From the IMG/VR virus record IMGVR_UViG_3300045988_121005: 64,000 bases of DNA. One strand, given 5' to 3'. The notes beneath the pieces are model-generated. The model had not been told where the DNA came from, did not search any database, and saw nothing but the letters and a program-made list of their open reading frames with translations. Source of the stretch: a virus. The number at the start of each line of letters is the position of its first letter. The first letter of the stretch is position 1. This document shows, one piece after another, positions 1,695-63,251 of this stretch. The position numbers were made by a program, and so were the translations under genes.

Positions 1695-2450
1695 TTGAAA
1701 CAAATCATGGGATTAGACGATTTTAAAAAAGATGTAATTAGAGTGATGACAAAAGAAGAGTTCGAATCAGCAATCAACGAAGATATTAAATTCGTTGAAG
1801 GAATTAAGCATTTTTTTAAACATGATGATGCTACGAGGGTAATGGAACACGTAAAGTCCGTGTTAGAAGCATCAGTGGACTACTGCTATCCGAATCATCC
1901 TGAACCTAAAGCAGAACCTGGAGACATGGGAGAGGTTTCTGATGGATACCATACTTTCAATGAATTGTATCGGTACCGCATGTTGTATAACGCTGCCTTC
2001 TTTAATCTATTAGCCAGAAATGGACAGGTTGAAGTTTGCAAATCAAGGAGACACAGCGACGGAGAAAAATGCTTCGGTTCTGATGATTGGTTTATTGTGA
2101 TGGCGATCCTACCTACCGGTCAGGTATCTAATCACTATGAAAGCAAATACTGGGATTTGTTTGATGTTCCTGAAAGAGAAACCGCTTTCGAATACGATGG
2201 CCATACACCAAATGAAGCTGCCGACAGACTTAAAAAGTATCTCAAACTGCCTCGTCGTGGCATGACATTCGAACAGGCTTTAGAACGGCTTAAATTAGGT
2301 CGTAAGATAAAAAGAATCGATTGGGGTAAAAAGTATATCTGTATGTTTGACGTAAATATATTGATGGTAGATACAGGTCAAAAAGTAGCATCAAATTGGA
2401 ATCCAACCGAACATGATATTATGTCTAATGACTGGGAGATTGCGGGATGA
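1695..2450 (+). CDS. Two-domain protein with an unknown N-terminal domain and a C-terminal DUF2829 (Tad2-like) domain.
   Basis: C-terminus reads MTFEQALERLKLGRKIKRIDWGKKYI...DIMSNDWEI. This matches the DUF2829 pattern MxFxEAL..LK.GKKI.R..W...DxxAxDWEi and is paralogous to ORF 61243..61587. Confidence 0.65.
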   Translation: MKQIMGLDDFKKDVIRVMTKEEFESAINEDIKFVEGIKHFFKHDDATRVMEHVKSVLEASVDYCYPNHPEPKAEPGDMGEVSDGYHTFNELYRYRMLYNAAFFNLLARNGQVEVCKSRRHSDGEKCFGSDDWFIVMAILPTGQVSNHYESKYWDLFDVPERETAFEYDGHTPNEAADRLKKYLKLPRRGMTFEQALERLKLGRKIKRIDWGKKYICMFDVNILMVDTGQKVASNWNPTEHDIMSNDWEIAG

Positions 2451-3398: not shown

Positions 3399-3712
3399 TT
3401 ACTAAACAAGATATACAAGCAGCAGCATCGTATATTTTCCGAAGCAGTTTTGTCTCGGAGGACCAGGCAAGGAAAGCAATGGTAAAAGCCGGCAATAACG
3501 CTACCAAGATCCTCGTCAAGACCTTTAGAGGCAAGTTGTTCAAGAAAGCTTTTGAAAGAGCCCGTAGAGGAAAGGATATCAGTTCTTTTGAAAGACAGGA
3601 AAAAGAAAGTGGTTTCAATTTTCTACATAATCCTAATAATGGTCGTATGCAAAGCGGTCATATTATAATAGATGGAATTGGTCTGTTTAAACAAATAATT
3701 CATGAAAGGTAA
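3395..3712 (+). CDS. Hypothetical basic protein (105 aa).
   Basis: ORF. Confidence 0.5.
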   Translation: MITKQDIQAAASYIFRSSFVSEDQARKAMVKAGNNATKILVKTFRGKLFKKAFERARRGKDISSFERQEKESGFNFLHNPNNGRMQSGHIIIDGIGLFKQIIHER

Positions 3713-3872
3713 AAAAGTTGATATTCGTTTAGGCAGAGGTCTGGCGAATCAGATTAAGATAAACAAAACCATTCCAGTGTCTCATAAACCAAAAGAAGAA
3801 CGTCGAATGATGTTTATTTGTGGTGATGATATTGCTTCTCTTATAAAGCGGTTTGAAAACGAATCAAAGTAA
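3702..3872 (+). CDS. Hypothetical small protein (about 56 aa; below the ORF-track cutoff).
   Basis: ATG at 3702. It ends just before a strong terminator. Confidence 0.3.
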   Translation: MKGKKVDIRLGRGLANQIKINKTIPVSHKPKEERRMMFICGDDIASLIKRFENESK

Positions 3873-3878
3873 TATAAA

Positions 3879-3908
3879 GTCGGACATGTGTCTTGTCCGA
3901 CTTTTTTT
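3879..3908 (+). terminator. Rho-independent terminator.
   Basis: Perfect 8-bp stem GTCGGACA/TGTCCGAC followed by T7. Confidence 0.7.
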
Positions 3909-3921
3909 ATATATTTGTGGC

Positions 3922-4245
3922 ATGGCAAGAGGTTATTATTGGATACCACAAACAGATGAAACGTTAAATGGCAGAAGCTATTACGTGGCTAAGATAGTAG
4001 GAGATATCACGTTTGATACTAAACGAAAAAGAATCGTATTTCAAGCTGATAGGTATTTCCCTGTAGGATCTGTTTTCCATTTTACGCACAATTGCTTCAA
4101 TTATATCATAACTTGCCGACTTCGTAAGCCGGGGCTTTGGTTTGAAGCCAGGAGAGAGGATTCGGGCCCTATTTGCCCTGAAGATATTGAGCGCTTTGAA
4201 TCGGGAAGGTTTATACACCGAGATGGGTACATGCATTACATATAA
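3922..4245 (+). CDS. Hypothetical protein; start trimmed.
   Basis: The ORF-track start at 3853 would be translated through the terminator hairpin. The ATG at 3922 follows a TATATTTG (TAnnTTTG) box. Confidence 0.45.
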   Translation: MARGYYWIPQTDETLNGRSYYVAKIVGDITFDTKRKRIVFQADRYFPVGSVFHFTHNCFNYIITCRLRKPGLWFEARREDSGPICPEDIERFESGRFIHRDGYMHYI

Positions 4246-50001: not shown

Positions 50002-50394
50002 TTATTTACTTTCCCATATTAGTTTATCTTCGGCTATTCCGATCTTTACTTCCTCGCACTTTCTTCCTATCCATCCATTGAGATACGAGAATGGTTCTGA
50101 GTTTTTTACTTCTTCTCCTAAGAAATTAAAAGCTTCAGTAGAAACATGGGATGCTTCATGGCGAACTGTTTCAAAATCAATTATTTTCTTATTAATAAAC
50201 CATATCAAAAATCCCGTATTAGGATTTAATTTACACCCTCCGTATGGAACGGATACAGTTACAGCCTTGCTATTATCTACGTAACTAAAATCGTTATTGA
50301 AACATTCTACCATGCCAGATACGTCTTTTCCTACGTATATCCACAGATTAAAAGGATAGACTTCCGGATAGAACTGATATAATTCACGCTTCAT
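50002..50394 (-). CDS. Small protein with an HExxH motif; putative zinc metallopeptidase-like.
   Basis: VRHEASHV. Last gene of a four-gene coupled operon. Confidence 0.4.
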   Translation of the reverse strand: MKRELYQFYPEVYPFNLWIYVGKDVSGMVECFNNDFSYVDNSKAVTVSVPYGGCKLNPNTGFLIWFINKKIIDFETVRHEASHVSTEAFNFLGEEVKNSEPFSYLNGWIGRKCEEVKIGIAEDKLIWESK

Positions 50395-51347
50395 TTCGAT
50401 AAAAGTTTTTTACTTTCAAGGAAGTCCTTAAACTGATCACTTGATACGTCTATAACGAATCCAGCAGCACCAGCATGTCCTCCACCACCGAATCTTTTAC
50501 TTACCTCACAGCAATCTACGCTGTCTTCTACGCATTCATAAAGAGAGAACCGTACTTTACCACCTGGCATGATACAAAATGGCATAAGGGCTTTAATTTT
50601 TCTACCGTCTAACCAGTCTCGTGTAAGAGAATCAAATACCTTAGAACTAAATTCGGTGGTATTCATCGCCACGACCTTCACCTCATCAACGTACGCTTCG
50701 AACGAATACGCACTTACCTCTTGTTCGTTTTTACCAGCCATGTAGTTAATTATAGCACGTCCTTCTTTAGCGAGATCATAAAAAATAAGATCAATTTCAT
50801 TGTCCTTCATATCTTCTTTAAAGTGATCATACAAATACGACAATGCTATTAATACATTGAGTCTTATTTTTGATCTCAAGGCATACTGGATAGCTACTAC
50901 CGTATCCCAGCCTAAACCGGATTCTTTATTCCACACATCGTAGTCTGACAGACACCGGACGATCGCCGGCACCTTCCCCATCAGCAGGTCCGAAGCCAGA
51001 GCGCACGCACCGACGCCGACTCTCCTAAGCCCTGGAACAGTGAATCCCCATGTCTTACTATCTTCGATAATTCCCTTATGATGATCTATCCACATCAGGC
51101 TCTTTCCTTCATCAAGCCACTTTTTGAAAACCGTTTTAGAATCGGCACCGAAAGACACATCAAGAACGTAAACAACATCTAAGTCACTCACCTTGCTGGT
51201 AACTTTCTTAACATCATCTTCATACGAATACGGGATATAAATAACATCCTTGTTTTTACTGTTTTCGTACATGGTTGCGATGGCTGCCGACACAACGCCA
51301 TCTAAATCTGATTTATGATAAACTATCGCCGTTTTTTTTACTTTCAT
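50391..51347 (-). CDS. DHH-DHHA1 family phosphoesterase (NrnA/RecJ-like).
   Basis: N-terminal HKSDLDGVVSA (DHH) and C-terminal GGGGHAGAAGF (DHHA1 GGGH). Confidence 0.65.
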   Translation of the reverse strand: MKVKKTAIVYHKSDLDGVVSAAIATMYENSKNKDVIYIPYSYEDDVKKVTSKVSDLDVVYVLDVSFGADSKTVFKKWLDEGKSLMWIDHHKGIIEDSKTWGFTVPGLRRVGVGACALASDLLMGKVPAIVRCLSDYDVWNKESGLGWDTVVAIQYALRSKIRLNVLIALSYLYDHFKEDMKDNEIDLIFYDLAKEGRAIINYMAGKNEQEVSAYSFEAYVDEVKVVAMNTTEFSSKVFDSLTRDWLDGRKIKALMPFCIMPGGKVRFSLYECVEDSVDCCEVSKRFGGGGHAGAAGFVIDVSSDQFKDFLESKKLLSK

Positions 51348-52188
51348 AATATAAGCTTGTGAATGTAATATTATTGTCTCCTTTATCTATTCTTATAATA
51401 TCGCTGTATCCTCTATAATCCTGATCTTTTTTAATACGAACCTTCAAAGTAGCTAAAGGAGGTTTACAGACAGGAGGAGTGTCAAACTCATCACTATAAA
51501 TATCTTGCAATTCAATTTTTATATTAAGATCAACTCCATATGGATTTTCAAGGATATATATATGATCGTTGTTTAGAATAACTATTCCTTCACTTGTATG
51601 TTCTTTGGACAATACATAATTTAAATCAAGATCTTTACCAACAAACTGAATAACATCCATATAGTCAATGCCGGCATTCTCAGCACATACCTTATCCGAA
51701 TCAGAGAACTGCCCTGGCAGACCACTGGCGCTTCCTACCATCAGCGTCATTGTCTCAATATCTTTATATGTTATACCATCCATCATCAACCTACAAGCAC
51801 CAAGTGCCTTATATACCATACCGGGATTAGGCTTCATCATCGGATCATATTCATCAATTGAAAAACACTCATAATGACCATACACTACTCCTCTTATACC
51901 TCTTTTCACTGCAAGATCATGAACGCATCTAAGGACATAATTTATCTTCGCATCAATATCTTCATCGGAAACAAACCCGACACCCACATCACATTGGTTG
52001 CTTATTATACCAAAGTATTTAACGCCATTTTGCTCCATAAGATCAAGTGCCCTATTCACGACATCTTGCTTAATCTTCATATCAGTAAGATCTTTTGCAT
52101 AAAGACCTCCAGATATGGTTTCAACCAACGTCCCGTCAAAATCAAATAGTAGTATTCTTTTGTTTTTAATATACAAATCTTTCATCAT
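51313..52188 (-). CDS. HAD-superfamily phosphatase (PNKP/HisB-like) with an extra C-terminal domain.
   Basis: Motif I LFDFDGTL, motif II IISNQ, motif III KPNPGM. Confidence 0.65.
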   Translation of the reverse strand: MMKDLYIKNKRILLFDFDGTLVETISGGLYAKDLTDMKIKQDVVNRALDLMEQNGVKYFGIISNQCDVGVGFVSDEDIDAKINYVLRCVHDLAVKRGIRGVVYGHYECFSIDEYDPMMKPNPGMVYKALGACRLMMDGITYKDIETMTLMVGSASGLPGQFSDSDKVCAENAGIDYMDVIQFVGKDLDLNYVLSKEHTSEGIVILNNDHIYILENPYGVDLNIKIELQDIYSDEFDTPPVCKPPLATLKVRIKKDQDYRGYSDIIRIDKGDNNITFTSLYYESKKNGDSLS

Positions 52189-54458: not shown

Positions 54459-54530
54459 GAGGCTTGTGGCGGAATCGAACCGCCCTACGAGGTTTTGCGG
54501 ACCCCTGACTAAACCACTCATCCAACAAGC
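54459..54530 (-). tRNA. tRNA-Cys(GCA): tRNA-Cys (GCA).
   Basis: 72 nt. Acceptor GGCUUGU/ACAAGCC, T-arm GGCGG-UUCGAUU-CCGCC, anticodon loop CCGCAAA. Confidence 0.7.
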
Positions 54531-54533
54531 CAT

Positions 54534-54607
54534 GTAGCCCAACCGGGAGTCGAACCCGGAACTAAAGTTTAGGAAACTTTTGTTATATCCGTTTAACTAC
54601 CAGGCTA
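54534..54607 (-). tRNA. tRNA-Arg(CCT): tRNA-Arg (CCT).
   Basis: T-arm CCGGG-UUCGACU-CCCGG. Anticodon stem AAAGU/ACUUU with loop UUCCUAA. The acceptor stem contains several G-U pairs. Confidence 0.6.
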
Positions 54608-54674
54608 TTTAATGTTTGCTATGTTCACACACCGCAAACACTGAGATAATTAACATTTCCACAAAAACTTATCG

Positions 54675-54745
54675 TTATCCAAGGAGGATTCGAACCTCCG
54701 ATAACAGAACCAAAATCTGTTGTGTTACCACTACACCATTGGACA
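54675..54745 (-). tRNA. tRNA-Gln(TTG): tRNA-Gln (TTG).
   Basis: D-arm GUGU/ACAC, anticodon stem ACAGA/UCUGU with loop UUUUGGU, T-arm GGAGG-UUCGAAU-CCUCC. Confidence 0.75.
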
Positions 54746-54746
54746 G

Positions 54747-54820
54747 TGGTCCCGGAGGGATTTGAACCCACGATCTTGCGGTTATGAGCCGCCTGCTTTC
54801 ACCACTAAGCTACAGGACCT
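54747..54820 (-). tRNA. tRNA-Met(CAT): tRNA-Met (CAT).
   Basis: Acceptor GGUCCUG/CGGGACC, D-arm GCUU/AAGC, anticodon loop CUCAUAA, T-loop UUCAAAU. Confidence 0.75.
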
Positions 54821-58737: not shown

Positions 58738-58833
58738 TTTTTAAAACTTACGATTATGACTATCTAACACTGCAAATGTATTATTTTAAAATCTAATTAC
58801 GAATTAATTGGATTTAAAATGATTTAAAATAGA

Positions 58834-59367
58834 TTAAATGGTTCTTCTTGCTGCTTCTGCTATAAGCATCGCATCGACTATACCGTCATGGGCTGTCTTA
58901 CATCTTTCGTTTTTAACGAACGTATCGTTTGGCCACAGCCTTTTAGCGCAAGCCAATGACGTTTTCTTAGTATTTACCTTACTGGCTTCCATAACCTTAT
59001 CAGAATGCGTCCAAACCAATTTCTGCCATGTTTTAGGGGCTATGAAATTAACGGAGCAACTTATGTCCGTAAATGCCATGCAGAGGGAGAGGAACAGCCC
59101 ATGCAGTTGGCCTTTGTTCTCCATGAGGGAGGCTGTAGAGGACGTGCTGACCCCGTACAGTGCGTGGACGTCCTCTATGACAAATACTACCCTATCAGGA
59201 TTGTTTTCTACGATCGTATCTCGGCAAAAAACATATTCTTTAGTCAAGTCTACTGGTCCTGAAACTGATATTCTTGGAGTGGAGATTCTTGATATTAGTT
59301 TACTGTCCTGATCGATGCAGGCTATGGCTCCATCTTTTCCTGGATCTGCTGCTATATATAATACCAT
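58834..59367 (-). CDS. RuvC-like Holliday-junction resolvase.
   Basis: LYIAADPGKDGAIACID (Asp motif), FVIEDVH (Glu) and C-terminal HDGIVDAMLIAEAARR. Confidence 0.6.
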   Translation of the reverse strand: MVLYIAADPGKDGAIACIDQDSKLISRISTPRISVSGPVDLTKEYVFCRDTIVENNPDRVVFVIEDVHALYGVSTSSTASLMENKGQLHGLFLSLCMAFTDISCSVNFIAPKTWQKLVWTHSDKVMEASKVNTKKTSLACAKRLWPNDTFVKNERCKTAHDGIVDAMLIAEAARRTI

Positions 59368-60058: not shown

Positions 60059-60361
60059 TTATATTTTAGGGAAACATTCTTCCAGTTCTCTATAAGAGCA
60101 CTCTACTACAACAGAATCTCCTTTAGGGAGAAATACTAAAATAGAATCGATAGAAAAAACACTATCTACTTTTCTTACAAGTTGGCCATGCTTGTAAGAA
60201 GACATGACCAACCTAATTCCATACGTATCAGAATAAGAGCCTTTCCTACATGGAATTATGTTTTCAACAATATAATCAAAGCCTCCGATATTAACTTCAT
60301 CGCCGGCACTGATTTCCATAATAGGAATCATTTTGGCTCTTCTATCTATGCTTATTTTCAT
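60059..60361 (-). CDS. Hypothetical protein (100 aa).
   Basis: ORF. Confidence 0.45.
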   Translation of the reverse strand: MKISIDRRAKMIPIMEISAGDEVNIGGFDYIVENIIPCRKGSYSDTYGIRLVMSSYKHGQLVRKVDSVFSIDSILVFLPKGDSVVVECSYRELEECFPKI

Positions 60362-61230
60362 TTAGCTACTTCGAATTTTATTTGCTCCTTTGGTTCATAA
60401 TTCCATACCTCAAAATCATCAGCCACAAAATCATAAAATCCTTTCCCTTCCATACGAGACGAGATAGTAACCTGTGGAACCGGGCCGAATAGGGATCGAC
60501 GAAGGAGATCGTTTGCCTGCTCTTCGTGCCGGTCATATACGTGCATATCTTGAATGAAGTGCGTAAAAATAGCCGGCCTTAACCCGGCGTCGTGAGCGAA
60601 CATCATCATAAGTGCAGCGTACTGTGCTACATTCCATAGGCCGGCAACAATAGCATCCTGGCTGCGCTGGTAAAGAGTCATATATAACTCATCTCCTTTA
60701 ACAGATAAATTGACCTGAAACGCACATTCTTGAAGAGGTTTTAGTCCATTGGTTTCAGGATCGAACATAGATGCTACTATTCTTCTTGATGAACGATCAT
60801 TCTTGAGTGACCAAAGAATGAAGTCTGTTTGGTTAAGAAAACCGTAAAGACCATCATGGATGTCTATCATACCCTCTGGAGCTTTACCGGTACCCATATA
60901 AACATGTCTGTTCACCATATCTCCATAACATCCTTCTATCTTTCCATTATCATCAGCCCACTGATCCCATATATGAAGACCAAGATCTTTAATATCTACC
61001 GATCTTTTTTGAAAAATCCATAAAATTTCCTTTATGGCATTTTTTAGATTAGTGGGTCTAAGTGAACCAAGAGGAAATTCCCGACGAAGATCGTACTGGT
61101 TGCATACTTGCAGGATACGCTTCACCTTGACGCCTGTCCCATCACAGTAGACCGGTCGCTTTACCTCTTCCCATGGCTGGCTCATTATAAGAGCCAAATT
61201 GTCTTGAAATATTTTATCTACTCTTGACAT
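60358..61230 (-). CDS. thyA: Thymidylate synthase (ThyA-family) homologue. A dUMP hydroxymethylase cannot be excluded.
   Basis: ThyA-like blocks LWIFQ, DIWDQWADDNG and YQRS.D, catalytic-type Cys in ECAFQVNL, and Asn in GLWNVAQY. Confidence 0.8.
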   Translation of the reverse strand: MSRVDKIFQDNLALIMSQPWEEVKRPVYCDGTGVKVKRILQVCNQYDLRREFPLGSLRPTNLKNAIKEILWIFQKRSVDIKDLGLHIWDQWADDNGKIEGCYGDMVNRHVYMGTGKAPEGMIDIHDGLYGFLNQTDFILWSLKNDRSSRRIVASMFDPETNGLKPLQECAFQVNLSVKGDELYMTLYQRSQDAIVAGLWNVAQYAALMMMFAHDAGLRPAIFTHFIQDMHVYDRHEEQANDLLRRSLFGPVPQVTISSRMEGKGFYDFVADDFEVWNYEPKEQIKFEVAK

Positions 61231-61242
61231 GTTTATATTTTT

Positions 61243-61587
61243 TTAACCAACTACCATCCAGTCATCAGCCAACATATCTGATTGAGAAGCTAACCATCCA
61301 TTTACAATATTATCGTTAGCATCTTTCATGCACAGATAAGAACAGAATTTAATCATGTTGGTTTCTGTTATGTCATAATAGTCGTTTACGTATTTTTTAA
61401 ACGAATCAGGCAATGACTTTACTCTATTAACTATCATATCAGTAGACAACCAATCTTCCGGTCGCTGGAATACGAACATACCTTTACCATTCCATCCTGA
61501 ACGAGCAATTAACTTACCTTCTTTTACTGCCTCTAAAGCTTCTCCAAATTTCATAACTGTATTTTTTTTATAAATTAAACTCTTCAA
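61243..61587 (-). CDS. DUF2829 family protein (Tad2-like candidate anti-Thoeris signal sponge).
   Basis: MKFGEALEAVKEGKLIARSGWNGKGMFVF...DMLADDWMVV. Confidence 0.65.
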   Translation of the reverse strand: MKSLIYKKNTVMKFGEALEAVKEGKLIARSGWNGKGMFVFQRPEDWLSTDMIVNRVKSLPDSFKKYVNDYYDITETNMIKFCSYLCMKDANDNIVNGWLASQSDMLADDWMVVG

Positions 61588-62995
61588 AATCTATTTCAGA
61601 TCCGGTTGACAAATTGATCATTGACTTCTCAAGTTCTTCCATTGGAATAGGATCAACAATTCCATCGTTTGAAAGTGTTTTCTTGTAGAAGTCGTTTACC
61701 ACCGGATCGCTTGTTTTTATTGTCTTAGGAATAGGTTGACGAAGATACATTCCTTCAAGCGATTTTACTCTTGAAAGAGCTGTATATAACTGACCTGTTT
61801 CGAAAGAGTTGGATACGTCCATCATCGCTGCATCTAAAGTTAGGCCCTGGCATTTATGGATAGTTATGGAGTAACCGATTTTTATCGGATACTGAGTAAT
61901 AGATCCAATTACCTCAGACTCCACTTTATACCCGTTTCTGACGTATTTTACTTTATCGAACGAACACGGTGTAATAATAACCTTAGTATGTTCTTCATCT
62001 TTAGGACGATCAAGAACGACTTCGATCTCTCCATTCTTAATAGAAGACACAACGCCAAGAGAACCATTGACATACTCTCCTCCGTTTCTAGTGATCATAA
62101 CCCTGGAACCTTCTTTTATAAGAAGCGTCTTTTCAACAGGAGCTTCTTTAGGATAATCACCTTTTATAATAGCTTCGAATTTTCTTAATGATCCAGGAAC
62201 AGAATTTATTCTCATTTCATTAATGGCCGTAGCCTTAGCGTTGGTTGTAACGATCTCAACATACCCGGCACTATTTTCAGGCTGAATACATCTACTGTTT
62301 AACGTACTAAACACATCATCGTCCATCTGACCATCACGAACCTTATTAAGGATGCTGATAAATTTCTCATCTTTCTGACGATATATTTTTTCAAAAGACA
62401 CCATTTCCATACCAGAAGCCATAAGAGACTTCGAACTAAAGAAATAAGATGTATCGTATATTTCTCTAAAGAAATCTTCTTTGATTACAGGTGGTAACTG
62501 AAATAAGTCTCCTACCATAATAAGTTTCACGCCGCCAAACGGATCCTTGTCGCCTCTTGCACGACGAAGAATGTCCGCAACATTATCAAGAAGATCAGGT
62601 CGAACCATAGAAATCTCGTCTATGATAAGATATTTTATATTCTGTAAAATCTTTTCGGATTCTCCTCTGAACTTGTTTTCACAATTGTCCATAAACTTGC
62701 CATTCCTTATCTCTGGAATGTAAGGTTGCATACCGATTCTGAAAAAAGAATGAATGGTTTGGCCGCCTGCATTAACAGCAGCAATACCGGTAGGAGCGAC
62801 AACAACCGCATTTTTTAATACCGGTATAACACGTTTAAGGAAGTACGTTTTTCCTGTACCTCCTTTTCCCGTAATAAACAGCGGTTTAGGTGACTTACAA
62901 ATAGACTTAATAGCCTTTCCCTGGGCGACATTACCTTCGGACATAACTGAACGAAGAACGCATTCCATTAGTTTTTTGTTGTAACTTATAGCCAT
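61568..62995 (-). CDS. SF1 DNA helicase of the Dda/Pif1/RecD type.
   Basis: Walker A ITGKGGTGKTY, Walker B IIDEISMV and the GDLFQLPPV motif. Confidence 0.85.
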   Translation of the reverse strand: MAISYNKKLMECVLRSVMSEGNVAQGKAIKSICKSPKPLFITGKGGTGKTYFLKRVIPVLKNAVVVAPTGIAAVNAGGQTIHSFFRIGMQPYIPEIRNGKFMDNCENKFRGESEKILQNIKYLIIDEISMVRPDLLDNVADILRRARGDKDPFGGVKLIMVGDLFQLPPVIKEDFFREIYDTSYFFSSKSLMASGMEMVSFEKIYRQKDEKFISILNKVRDGQMDDDVFSTLNSRCIQPENSAGYVEIVTTNAKATAINEMRINSVPGSLRKFEAIIKGDYPKEAPVEKTLLIKEGSRVMITRNGGEYVNGSLGVVSSIKNGEIEVVLDRPKDEEHTKVIITPCSFDKVKYVRNGYKVESEVIGSITQYPIKIGYSITIHKCQGLTLDAAMMDVSNSFETGQLYTALSRVKSLEGMYLRQPIPKTIKTSDPVVNDFYKKTLSNDGIVDPIPMEELEKSMINLSTGSEIDFEEFNL

Positions 62996-63251
62996 ATTTT
63001 TCTGATTTTGTTCTACAAAACAAAAGTATGAAAATAAGATAAAACATAAAACATAAAATGAATTAATTAGAATTAAAAAGAAATAATAAATTAGATAAGT
63101 GGCTTTGTGGCAGACAGTAATGTAGTTTCGTATTGATACAGTTATGGCATAGTAGTGGCTAACGGGTGTTTCCGTCGGTGTTCTACGAGATTATCGTTTT
63201 TCGGCTCTGTCGGCGACTACTAAGAACAGACCCTCTCTCAAGTACCAATCA

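Follow-up and report, generated by a model that had tools for sequence, protein, structure and literature searches.

Results

The tad2 gene and its immediate neighbours

The DNA under study is the IMG/VR virus record IMGVR_UViG_3300045988_121005, a stretch of 64,000 nucleotides (nt) that we refer to in its full length as the window, and our subject is a small minus-strand gene in it that codes for a protein of the Tad2-like family (PF11195, formerly DUF2829). The initial annotation, which was made from the letters alone, had placed here a standalone protein of 114 amino acids (aa) at 61243-61587, next to thyA, and had proposed it as a candidate Tad2-like sponge against the Thoeris defence. The features at the locus are as follows.

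61243..61554, minus strand: Tad2-family gene (single-domain DUF2829/PF11195), 103 aa plus stop, MKFGEALEAV...DDWMVVG
61339..61461, minus strand: insertion (extended) domain of that protein, codons 32-72, beta2-beta5, carrying P32, D34, L36, K46, S47 and F70
61555..61587, minus strand: 11 extra N-terminal codons (33 nt) if read from a TTG, made up of the helicase 3' end, its stop codon and a 13-nt A-rich spacer
61568..62995, minus strand: upstream PIF1/Dda-like helicase gene, 475 aa (PF05970, E=1.1e-32; PHROG 325, Dda-like helicase, E=9e-69)
60358..61230, minus strand: downstream thymidylate synthase gene thyA, 290 aa (PF00303, E=2e-58; PHROG 160, E=5.5e-54)
63021..63028, minus strand: TACTTTTG, which, as read from the sequence, fits the Bacteroides -7 promoter consensus TAnnTTTG and lies 26 nt ahead of the helicase ATG

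The two DUF2829 hallmarks named in the initial annotation were both found in the open reading frame (ORF), the motif MKFGEALEAVKEGKLIARSGW at the end with the ATG and DMLADDW close to the C-terminus of the product, and the placement beside thyA was borne out, with thyA starting 12 nt beyond the tad2 stop codon. The length was not. An ORF does run over 61243..61587 on the minus strand and gives 114 aa if read from the TTG at 61587, but the true start is almost certainly the ATG at 61554, which yields 103 aa. This is because the TTG extension runs over the last 20 nt of the helicase gene (whose stop codon, at 61568, lies 13 nt ahead of the ATG), because the alignment with the closest solved homolog, HgmTad2, opens at Met1 in both proteins, and because separate gene calls on other contigs yield exactly this 103-aa product. 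In addition, the A-run between TTG and ATG measures 6, 7, 8, 9 or 10 nt among nine members of the lineage, so that the TTG frame is not conserved. The stretch 61555..61587 is thus most likely not translated as part of Tad2. The ORF at 61243..61554 is a genuine gene; the plus strand beneath it holds no competing ORF of 40 aa or more, and the identical 103-aa product, which occurs on other human-gut contigs, is indexed in 272 blocks of a public collection.

Family membership and predicted fold

The hidden Markov model search proposed in the initial annotation gave a match to PF11195 over the full profile (positions 1-73 of 73) that is well outside chance, with E=2.9e-24 and a score of 85.8 bits where the cut-off is 25 bits, and the alignment accommodates about 30 additional residues in the middle of the domain. 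PHROGs 1048 and 872 were likewise matched (1e-24 to 1e-26). Among the PDB sequences, phmmer placed first pdAcrIIA7 of Phocaeicola dorei (9KZR, E=2e-43) and HgmTad2, which is the same protein as a metagenomic AcrIIA7, meAcrIIA7 (8KBI and related entries, E=8e-43, aligned without gaps over residues 1-102), followed by SptTad2 (E=3e-31) and by the SPO1 and Myroides Tad2 proteins (both ∼1e-14). Sixty-six of 102 positions (65%) are identical to HgmTad2. A homolog search with the 103-aa protein returned 2,399 matches; a published survey counted 2,783 non-redundant Tad2 homologs in IMG/VR.

An AlphaFold2 monomer, built on an alignment of 90 homologs that share 57-98% identity with the 103-aa protein, was predicted with a mean pLDDT (per-residue confidence score) of 95.8 and a pTM (predicted template modelling score) of 0.80. 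It comprises five helices and seven strands, ordered as in the core and extended domains of AcrIIA7. When the model was compared with the PDB by Foldseek, the best 24 matches were all Tad2 structures (E 8e-15 to 2e-06), led by the HgmTad2/AcrIIA7 entries 8KBK and 8KBI with template modelling (TM) scores of 0.84-0.86 at 65% identity, and the next match, an unrelated one, had E ∼0.5. By profile, sequence and predicted fold, the 103-aa protein is a clear Tad2-family member. Profile and fold thereby support the original proposal of a Tad2-like protein, of which the sponge function would follow by homology. It is also standalone, as had been stated: the protein consists of the domain alone, aligning from its residue 1 with meAcrIIA7 and from residue 50 of pdAcrIIA7, so that the 48-residue head of the latter is absent.

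Insertion domain and ligand pockets

The HgmTad2 tetramer binds two molecules of glycocyclic ADP-ribose (gcADPR) in one kind of pocket and two cyclic dinucleotides in another, the latter kind being formed by an insertion (residues 32-72) that is short in SPO1 Tad2; its cyclic dinucleotide ligands are cyclic di-GMP (cGG, at picomolar affinity), 3',3'-cGAMP, cUG and also 3',2'-cGAMP; binding is abolished by mutation of W21/N22, S90/T92/D93, R31/N85, S47 or F70 (Li et al., bioRxiv 10.1101/2023.11.15.567273). A second laboratory found that meAcrIIA7 and pdAcrIIA7 both bind cGG and gcADPR (Lee and Park, PMC13133391).

Because the alignment is ungapped, HgmTad2 residue numbers carry over directly to the 103-aa protein, in which an insertion of about 41 residues is present at HgmTad2 positions 32-72. 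The model folds this segment as strand 34-37, helices 38-43 and 50-59 and strand 67-70, all at pLDDT >90, and it matches the HgmTad2 extended domain, which is made up of a beta-hairpin and two helices. In the gcADPR pocket, nine of 12 residues are identical (W21, N22, G23, M76, V84, W87, L88, S90 and D93), the differences being A78D, T82N and T92S, the last a conservative change in which the hydroxyl is kept. The cyclic-dinucleotide pocket is identical at eight of nine positions (R31, P32, D34, L36, K46, S47, F70 and N85), and its sole change, T71C, falls on a main-chain carbonyl contact. All of the positions at which mutation abolishes binding are thus retained, except for T92, which is Ser; W21, N22, S90, D93, R31, N85, S47 and F70 are invariant in 90 of 90 homologs. 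On this sequence evidence, we assign the protein to the long-insertion HgmTad2/AcrIIA7 subfamily, which is associated with Bacteroidota, and this membership leads us to predict a second pocket, for cGG-type cyclic dinucleotides, beside the gcADPR pocket.

Selection and disrupted alleles

Compared with its allele in the related phage csAssE-Sib (OR575929), the tad2 gene differs at 15 synonymous and eight non-synonymous sites, and the ratio of non-synonymous to synonymous rates (dN/dS) is 0.11. The gene is therefore under purifying selection. The csAssE-Sib allele itself (L001, 10580-10905, minus strand) has lost 1 base pair (bp) in an A7 run at codons 11-12, GTAAAAAAAGG becoming GTAAAAAAGG, which shifts the frame within the N-terminal helix, and in the record the gene is accordingly annotated from an internal start, with a product of just 89 aa. 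On other contigs (P0006, P0036 and P0061) the allele is intact, EEVKKGALIARAG, and the change from A7 to A6 reflects either a sequencing error in the homopolymer or a genuine null allele. A cassette swap, in which the 89-aa DUF2829 protein of csAssE-Sib would be another version of Tad2, was considered and rejected, as the DNA alignment shows the same gene minus 1 bp.

Many near-identical Tad2 homologs in gut metagenomes have internal deletions, frameshifts or fusions, and four of these were verified in the DNA as independent lesions. Among the rearranged alleles are in-frame losses of 7-33 aa (one of which, 99 bp long, lies at a microhomology of sequence ATG[A/G]T), a 14-bp deletion that lies between AGGA repeats and takes out W21-K24, a duplication of 8 bp, and fusions with the helicase, with a TnpB remnant, with a neighbouring 66-aa gene and with thyA. 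Disrupted alleles occur in the metagenomes ERR11778028/24, SRR32732890 and SRR22402308. The disrupted alleles are listed here.

L088 3001-3213; L090 1493-1790; L091 3402-3938: disrupted tad2 alleles (proteins P0006-P0014, P0031, P0036, P0038, P0042, P0043, P0061, P0088 and P0111)

We also considered whether inactivation recurs specifically in tad2, and this was unsupported: a length-matched neighbouring gene (60059..60361) carries the same kinds of lesions, with 16 rearranged and 11 intact clusters as compared to 15 and five for tad2 (Fisher p=0.35). Counted by member sequences there is a 6.6-fold excess in tad2, which hangs on two clusters and few sequencing runs. The lesions look like general background variation or assembly noise in an abundant lineage, with at most a modest excess in tad2.

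Genomic context, lineage and host

The helicase gene, tad2 and thyA head a co-directional block that continues with three small ORFs and the genes for a RuvC-like resolvase, a sliding clamp, a single-stranded DNA-binding protein and a dUTPase. Because tad2 lies in this tight block, it is probably produced together with the replication module. The element TACTTTTG is a candidate promoter of a helicase-tad2-thyA transcription unit, a match that is suggestive only. The full Bacteroides -33/-7 pattern had five matches window-wide (2.1 expected), none of them at helicase-tad2-thyA. A scan of 57-64 kb found no sigma-70-type promoter or intrinsic terminator in the gaps between the three genes; its counts were at chance level, and its model is ill-suited to Bacteroidota.

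The window shares 93-94% identity, along most of its extent, with csAssE-Sib, a phage of 151 kb from the human gut that is uncultured, has no host on record and for which a literature search found no paper. The order helicase-tad2-thyA is kept on independent human-gut contigs. The csAssE-Sib record already labels the gene DUF2829, and none of the best 30 public phage records with a homolog carries a label of Tad2 or anti-defence, so a functional annotation adds some value.

The host is probably a member of the Bacteroidales, and three observations point this way. A Shine-Dalgarno-like motif is absent in nine of nine genes examined. In bacterial genomes, nearly all of the closest relatives (47-63% identity) belong to Bacteroidota, among them Phocaeicola vulgatus, Bacteroidales and Rikenellaceae metagenome-assembled genomes, Prevotella, Dysgonomonas and Salegentibacter sp. 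BDJ18. Lastly, of the best 30 phage records listed, just one from an isolated phage holds a close homolog, that of Phocaeicola phage PV4-TP1 (62% identity), whose host is Phocaeicola vulgatus.

Two variable elements were seen near tad2 in related genomes. Between tad2 and thyA, csAssE-Sib and some metagenomic relatives have a 66-aa gene (MKTKEEKQKKFVTEFEING...) annotated as a putative DNA binding protein (L001 10306-10506, L088 3286-3486 and L089 303-503), at the place where the window and L002-L005 have only the 12-nt spacer (61231..61242). It had no Pfam match (best E=0.036) and, as a variable gene next to tad2, could be an accessory or anti-defence gene. A TnpB/IS605 OrfB-type gene (396 aa; PF01385, with PF07282 weak) lies between the RuvC-like and sliding-clamp genes in L004 (6852-8042) and L005 (6854-8044). 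Its insertion site corresponds to the gap 58738..58833 of the window, which is without a TnpB gene. In L091 (∼3700-3938), a TnpB-like C-terminal remnant (...GKLINADVNGALNIMRKVV...) stands in place of the 3' end of tad2. An IS605-family element thus appears to be active in this phage lineage.

Other genes in the window

1695..2450, plus strand: second Tad2-like gene, 251 aa, with an N-terminal WDGH domain (PF25311, E=1e-36) and a Tad2-like domain
50391..51347 and 51313..52188, minus strand: overlapping genes for a DHH/DHHA1 (NrnA-like) phosphodiesterase (PF02272, E=4e-07; PF01368, E=4e-05) and a protein of polynucleotide kinase 3'-phosphatase type (PF08645, E=5e-12)
54459..54819, minus strand: four tRNA genes (Cys-GCA, Arg-CCT, Gln-TTG and Met-CAT), annotated in csAssE-Sib too
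58834..59367, minus strand: RuvC-like resolvase, 177 aa (PHROG 1770, E=1e-13)
58838..59311, plus strand: antisense ORF within the resolvase gene, 157 aa

In the 251-aa protein, the Tad2-like domain (PF11195, E=5e-11, residues 190-249) is short, divergent and without the insertion, and its pocket motifs are altered, with W-G-K-K for W-N-G-K and T-E-H-D for S-Q-S-D. The 251-aa protein resembles the 103-aa protein (E=4e-05 by BLASTP) and SPO1 Tad2 (E=0.004) only weakly, and its csAssE-Sib orthologue is annotated DUF2829. Enzymes of the DHH-DHHA1 type cut short oligonucleotides and some cyclic dinucleotide products, and a putative role of the overlapping pair in RNA repair or in degradation of nucleotide signals is possible. 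In L002 and L091, the automatic gene caller chose the antisense ORF over the RuvC-like resolvase, which is probably a gene-calling artefact.

Discussion

The gene at 61243..61554 codes for a Tad2-family protein whose closest relative has been solved and biochemically characterised, and by analogy with that relative we consider it likely that the protein acts as a homotetrameric dual sponge, directed against Thoeris through gcADPR and against cyclic-oligonucleotide-based antiphage signalling systems (CBASS) of the cGG type. The broader proposition, that one or more nucleotide immune signals are sequestered by it, can be put with high confidence. Four subunits of 11.8 kDa would come together as a tetramer in which the pockets are of two independent kinds. 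Two of them, at the dimer-dimer interfaces, would bind the Thoeris signal gcADPR (in its 1''-2' and 1''-3' forms). The other two, formed by the insertion domains, would take up cGG and 3',3'-cyclic dinucleotides related to it, which serve Bacteroidota CBASS systems (CdnE/CdnB with TIR-STING or TM-STING effectors) as alarm signals. The signals would be sequestered rather than degraded, so that NADase or membrane effectors of a host carrying these systems would stay off and abortive infection would be prevented. Tad2 would presumably be produced at the same time as the replication and nucleotide-metabolism module. In Bacteroides, cGG is a CBASS signal for STING-type effectors (cited in bioRxiv 10.1101/2023.11.15.567273), and the second pocket therefore has a plausible target.

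Three observations weigh against this interpretation. First, D78, N82 and S92 differ from HgmTad2 at three adenine-contacting positions of its gcADPR pocket, a trio that is restricted to this phage's own clade (six of 90 homologs). Because these positions vary among proven gcADPR binders, being K/N/T in SPO1 Tad2 and S/D/T in SptTad2 by alignment, the change is probably tolerated. Second, and this is the main caveat on the dual-sponge reading, ligand specificity in Tad2 is plastic, the ligands of different homologs being gcADPR, His-ADPR, N7-cADPR, cUMP/cCMP or cyclic dinucleotides. Third, disrupted alleles circulate, that of the deposited csAssE-Sib included, and the gene must be dispensable in at least some settings.

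A point that refines the initial annotation is that the closest characterised relative also bears an anti-CRISPR label, which is disputed. In the account of Lee and Park (PMC13133391), head-less AcrIIA7 binds trans-activating CRISPR RNA (tracrRNA) in a basic groove and blocks assembly of the Cas9 ribonucleoprotein, the groove residues of pdAcrIIA7 being K58, K66, K71, K93 and R101 (positions 11, 19, 24, 46 and 54 in our numbering). Li et al. (bioRxiv 10.1101/2023.11.15.567273) found no anti-CRISPR activity of HgmTad2 in vitro or in vivo, and both groups agree on the binding of cGG and gcADPR (PMC13133391; bioRxiv 10.1101/2023.11.15.567273). The window protein could thus be an anti-CRISPR of the AcrIIA7 type, instead of or besides a sponge, in which a head-less tetramer would bind tracrRNA in the groove and prevent its pairing with crRNA and hence assembly of the Cas9 complex. 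Its two best PDB sequence matches are indeed AcrIIA7 entries, the inhibitory 48-residue head is absent, as in the active meAcrIIA7 and deltaN48 forms, and four of the five groove positions tested by mutation are basic (K11, K24, K46 and K54, the last of which is Arg in AcrIIA7). However, groove position 19 is Ser, where mutation of the corresponding pdAcrIIA7 residue, K66, abolished RNA binding, and R12 is replaced by Glu. The protein is moreover acidic, with a net charge of -3 and an isoelectric point (pI) of 4.8 as compared to +2 and 8.9 for HgmTad2, and its core domain carries -1 where that of HgmTad2 carries +3, so that the five-residue basic groove on a positively charged core that marks AcrIIA7 is lacking (K11, S19, K24, K46, K54). 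Across the family, position 19 is most frequently Glu (38 of 90 homologs) and only eight of 90 are basic, and the RNA groove is for this reason not a conserved family trait, unlike the invariant ligand pockets. The reported activity was shown only against the type II-A SpyCas9, at micromolar protein and with pre-incubation (PMC13133391). We therefore regard an anti-CRISPR role as unlikely.

The D78/N82/S92 trio raises another alternative, namely that in this Tad2 sponge the ADPR-type pocket has moved from gcADPR to another TIR-derived signal, for instance His-ADPR (type II Thoeris), N7-cADPR (type IV Thoeris) or an uncharacterised Bacteroidales signal. The adenine-contacting differences are clade-specific, ModTad2, which binds His-ADPR, likewise carries Asn and Ser where it aligns with 82 and 92, and Tad2 homologs with altered or multiple Thoeris specificities have been documented. 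Nevertheless, the variability of these three positions among proven gcADPR binders tells against such a shift, as do the preserved hydroxyl of Ser92, the ribose and diphosphate contacts, all of which are identical to those of HgmTad2, and an identity of 65% to HgmTad2 as compared to ∼33-37% to ModTad2. We give this alternative a slim chance.

It is hardly credible that the gene has no role in anti-defence, whether as a decaying accessory gene, a small nucleotide-binding helper of replication or metabolism, or a manipulator of host cyclic di-GMP: its position among thyA, helicase and dUTPase genes, the frameshifted and deleted alleles in the lineage (csAssE-Sib included) and the picomolar affinity of HgmTad2 for cGG, a general second messenger in many bacteria, would fit, but a dN/dS of 0.11 with invariant pocket residues argues that a ligand-binding function has been maintained, identical intact copies of the protein are widespread, tad2 is not alone in carrying such lesions (the length-matched neighbour has a comparable number of disrupted clusters), and in Bacteroides the usual diguanylate cyclases are missing and cGG serves as a CBASS signal (cited in bioRxiv 10.1101/2023.11.15.567273).

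We thus favour the dual sponge. If so, a widespread human-gut phage lineage, probably infecting Bacteroidales, would appear to invest in neutralising nucleotide-based immunity (Thoeris and cGG-type CBASS), which is of relevance to phage-host dynamics in the gut and to the choice of phages or hosts for therapy and engineering. Current understanding is unchanged by this find, because the family, subfamily, fold and mechanism have all been described already. Its use may lie elsewhere: because both ligand pockets are kept and the basic RNA groove is absent, the protein is a convenient natural test case in the dispute over whether AcrIIA7/HgmTad2 is a sponge, an anti-CRISPR or both. As a long shot, one may go further and suppose that the clade carries a natural separation-of-function variant of HgmTad2/AcrIIA7, in which the pockets are intact, the basic RNA groove has gone (K19S, R12E and an acidic surface) and the adenine sub-pocket has been reshaped in a manner peculiar to the clade (D78/N82/S92), which may have retuned the ADPR-type pocket to another TIR-derived signal of Bacteroidales (such as His-ADPR, N7-cADPR or an undescribed molecule). 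Such a variant, if real, would settle which AcrIIA7/Tad2 activity is selected in gut phages and would reveal a new ligand specificity.

Comparison with characterised Tad2 proteins

The founding member, SPO1 Tad2 (gp34.65; PDB 8SME/8SMF/8SMG), shares with the window protein the DUF2829 core and the gcADPR-pocket motifs GWNGK...W.PSQTD.LAEDW, at E ∼1e-14, a TM score of ∼0.6 and an identity of ∼35%. It differs in its short insertion (residues 36-59), with which the second pocket is occluded, and it binds no cyclic dinucleotides. ModTad2, from a Myroides odoratus prophage (PDB 9EIB, 8V3E), likewise has the Tad2 fold, a Bacteroidota prophage origin and two pocket types, and it has the same Asn/Ser pair as the window protein at the positions aligned to 82 and 92; it takes His-ADPR and cUMP/cCMP, however, in place of gcADPR and cyclic dinucleotides, has a shorter insertion, and is only 33-37% identical to the window protein.

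Closer are SptTad2 of Sphingobacterium thalpophilum (PDB 8WJD; E=3e-31, 53% identity, TM score 0.80) and SaTad2 of Salegentibacter sp. BDJ18, a locus of which has 59% identity to the window protein. Both are long-insertion Tad2 proteins of Bacteroidota that bind cGG and related dinucleotides. The insertion of SptTad2 is six residues shorter than that of the window protein, and both come from bacterial (pro)phage regions, whereas the window gene comes from a large, lytic-type gut phage. With pdAcrIIA7 (PDB 9KZR), the alignment takes in residues 3-102 and thus the core and extended domains, and the model has the same order of elements, alpha3-beta1-alpha4-beta2-beta3-alpha5-alpha6-beta4-beta5-beta6-alpha7-beta7. 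The P. dorei protein has in addition the N-terminal 48-residue head, which blocks its anti-CRISPR activity and which the window protein lacks, and one of its five basic tracrRNA-groove residues is not conserved in the window protein.

The nearest counterpart is HgmTad2, or meAcrIIA7, from a human gut metagenome (PDB 8KBI-8KBM, 8WJC), which resembles the window protein in its length (∼103-104 aa), in the common 41-residue insertion domain, in being without a head domain and in its link to Bacteroidota phages. The two are separated by 36 substitutions, including A78D/T82N/T92S and those that replace K19 and R12, and by a change from a basic to an acidic protein, and, unlike HgmTad2, the window gene sits in the replication module of a virulent-looking gut phage of ∼150 kb.

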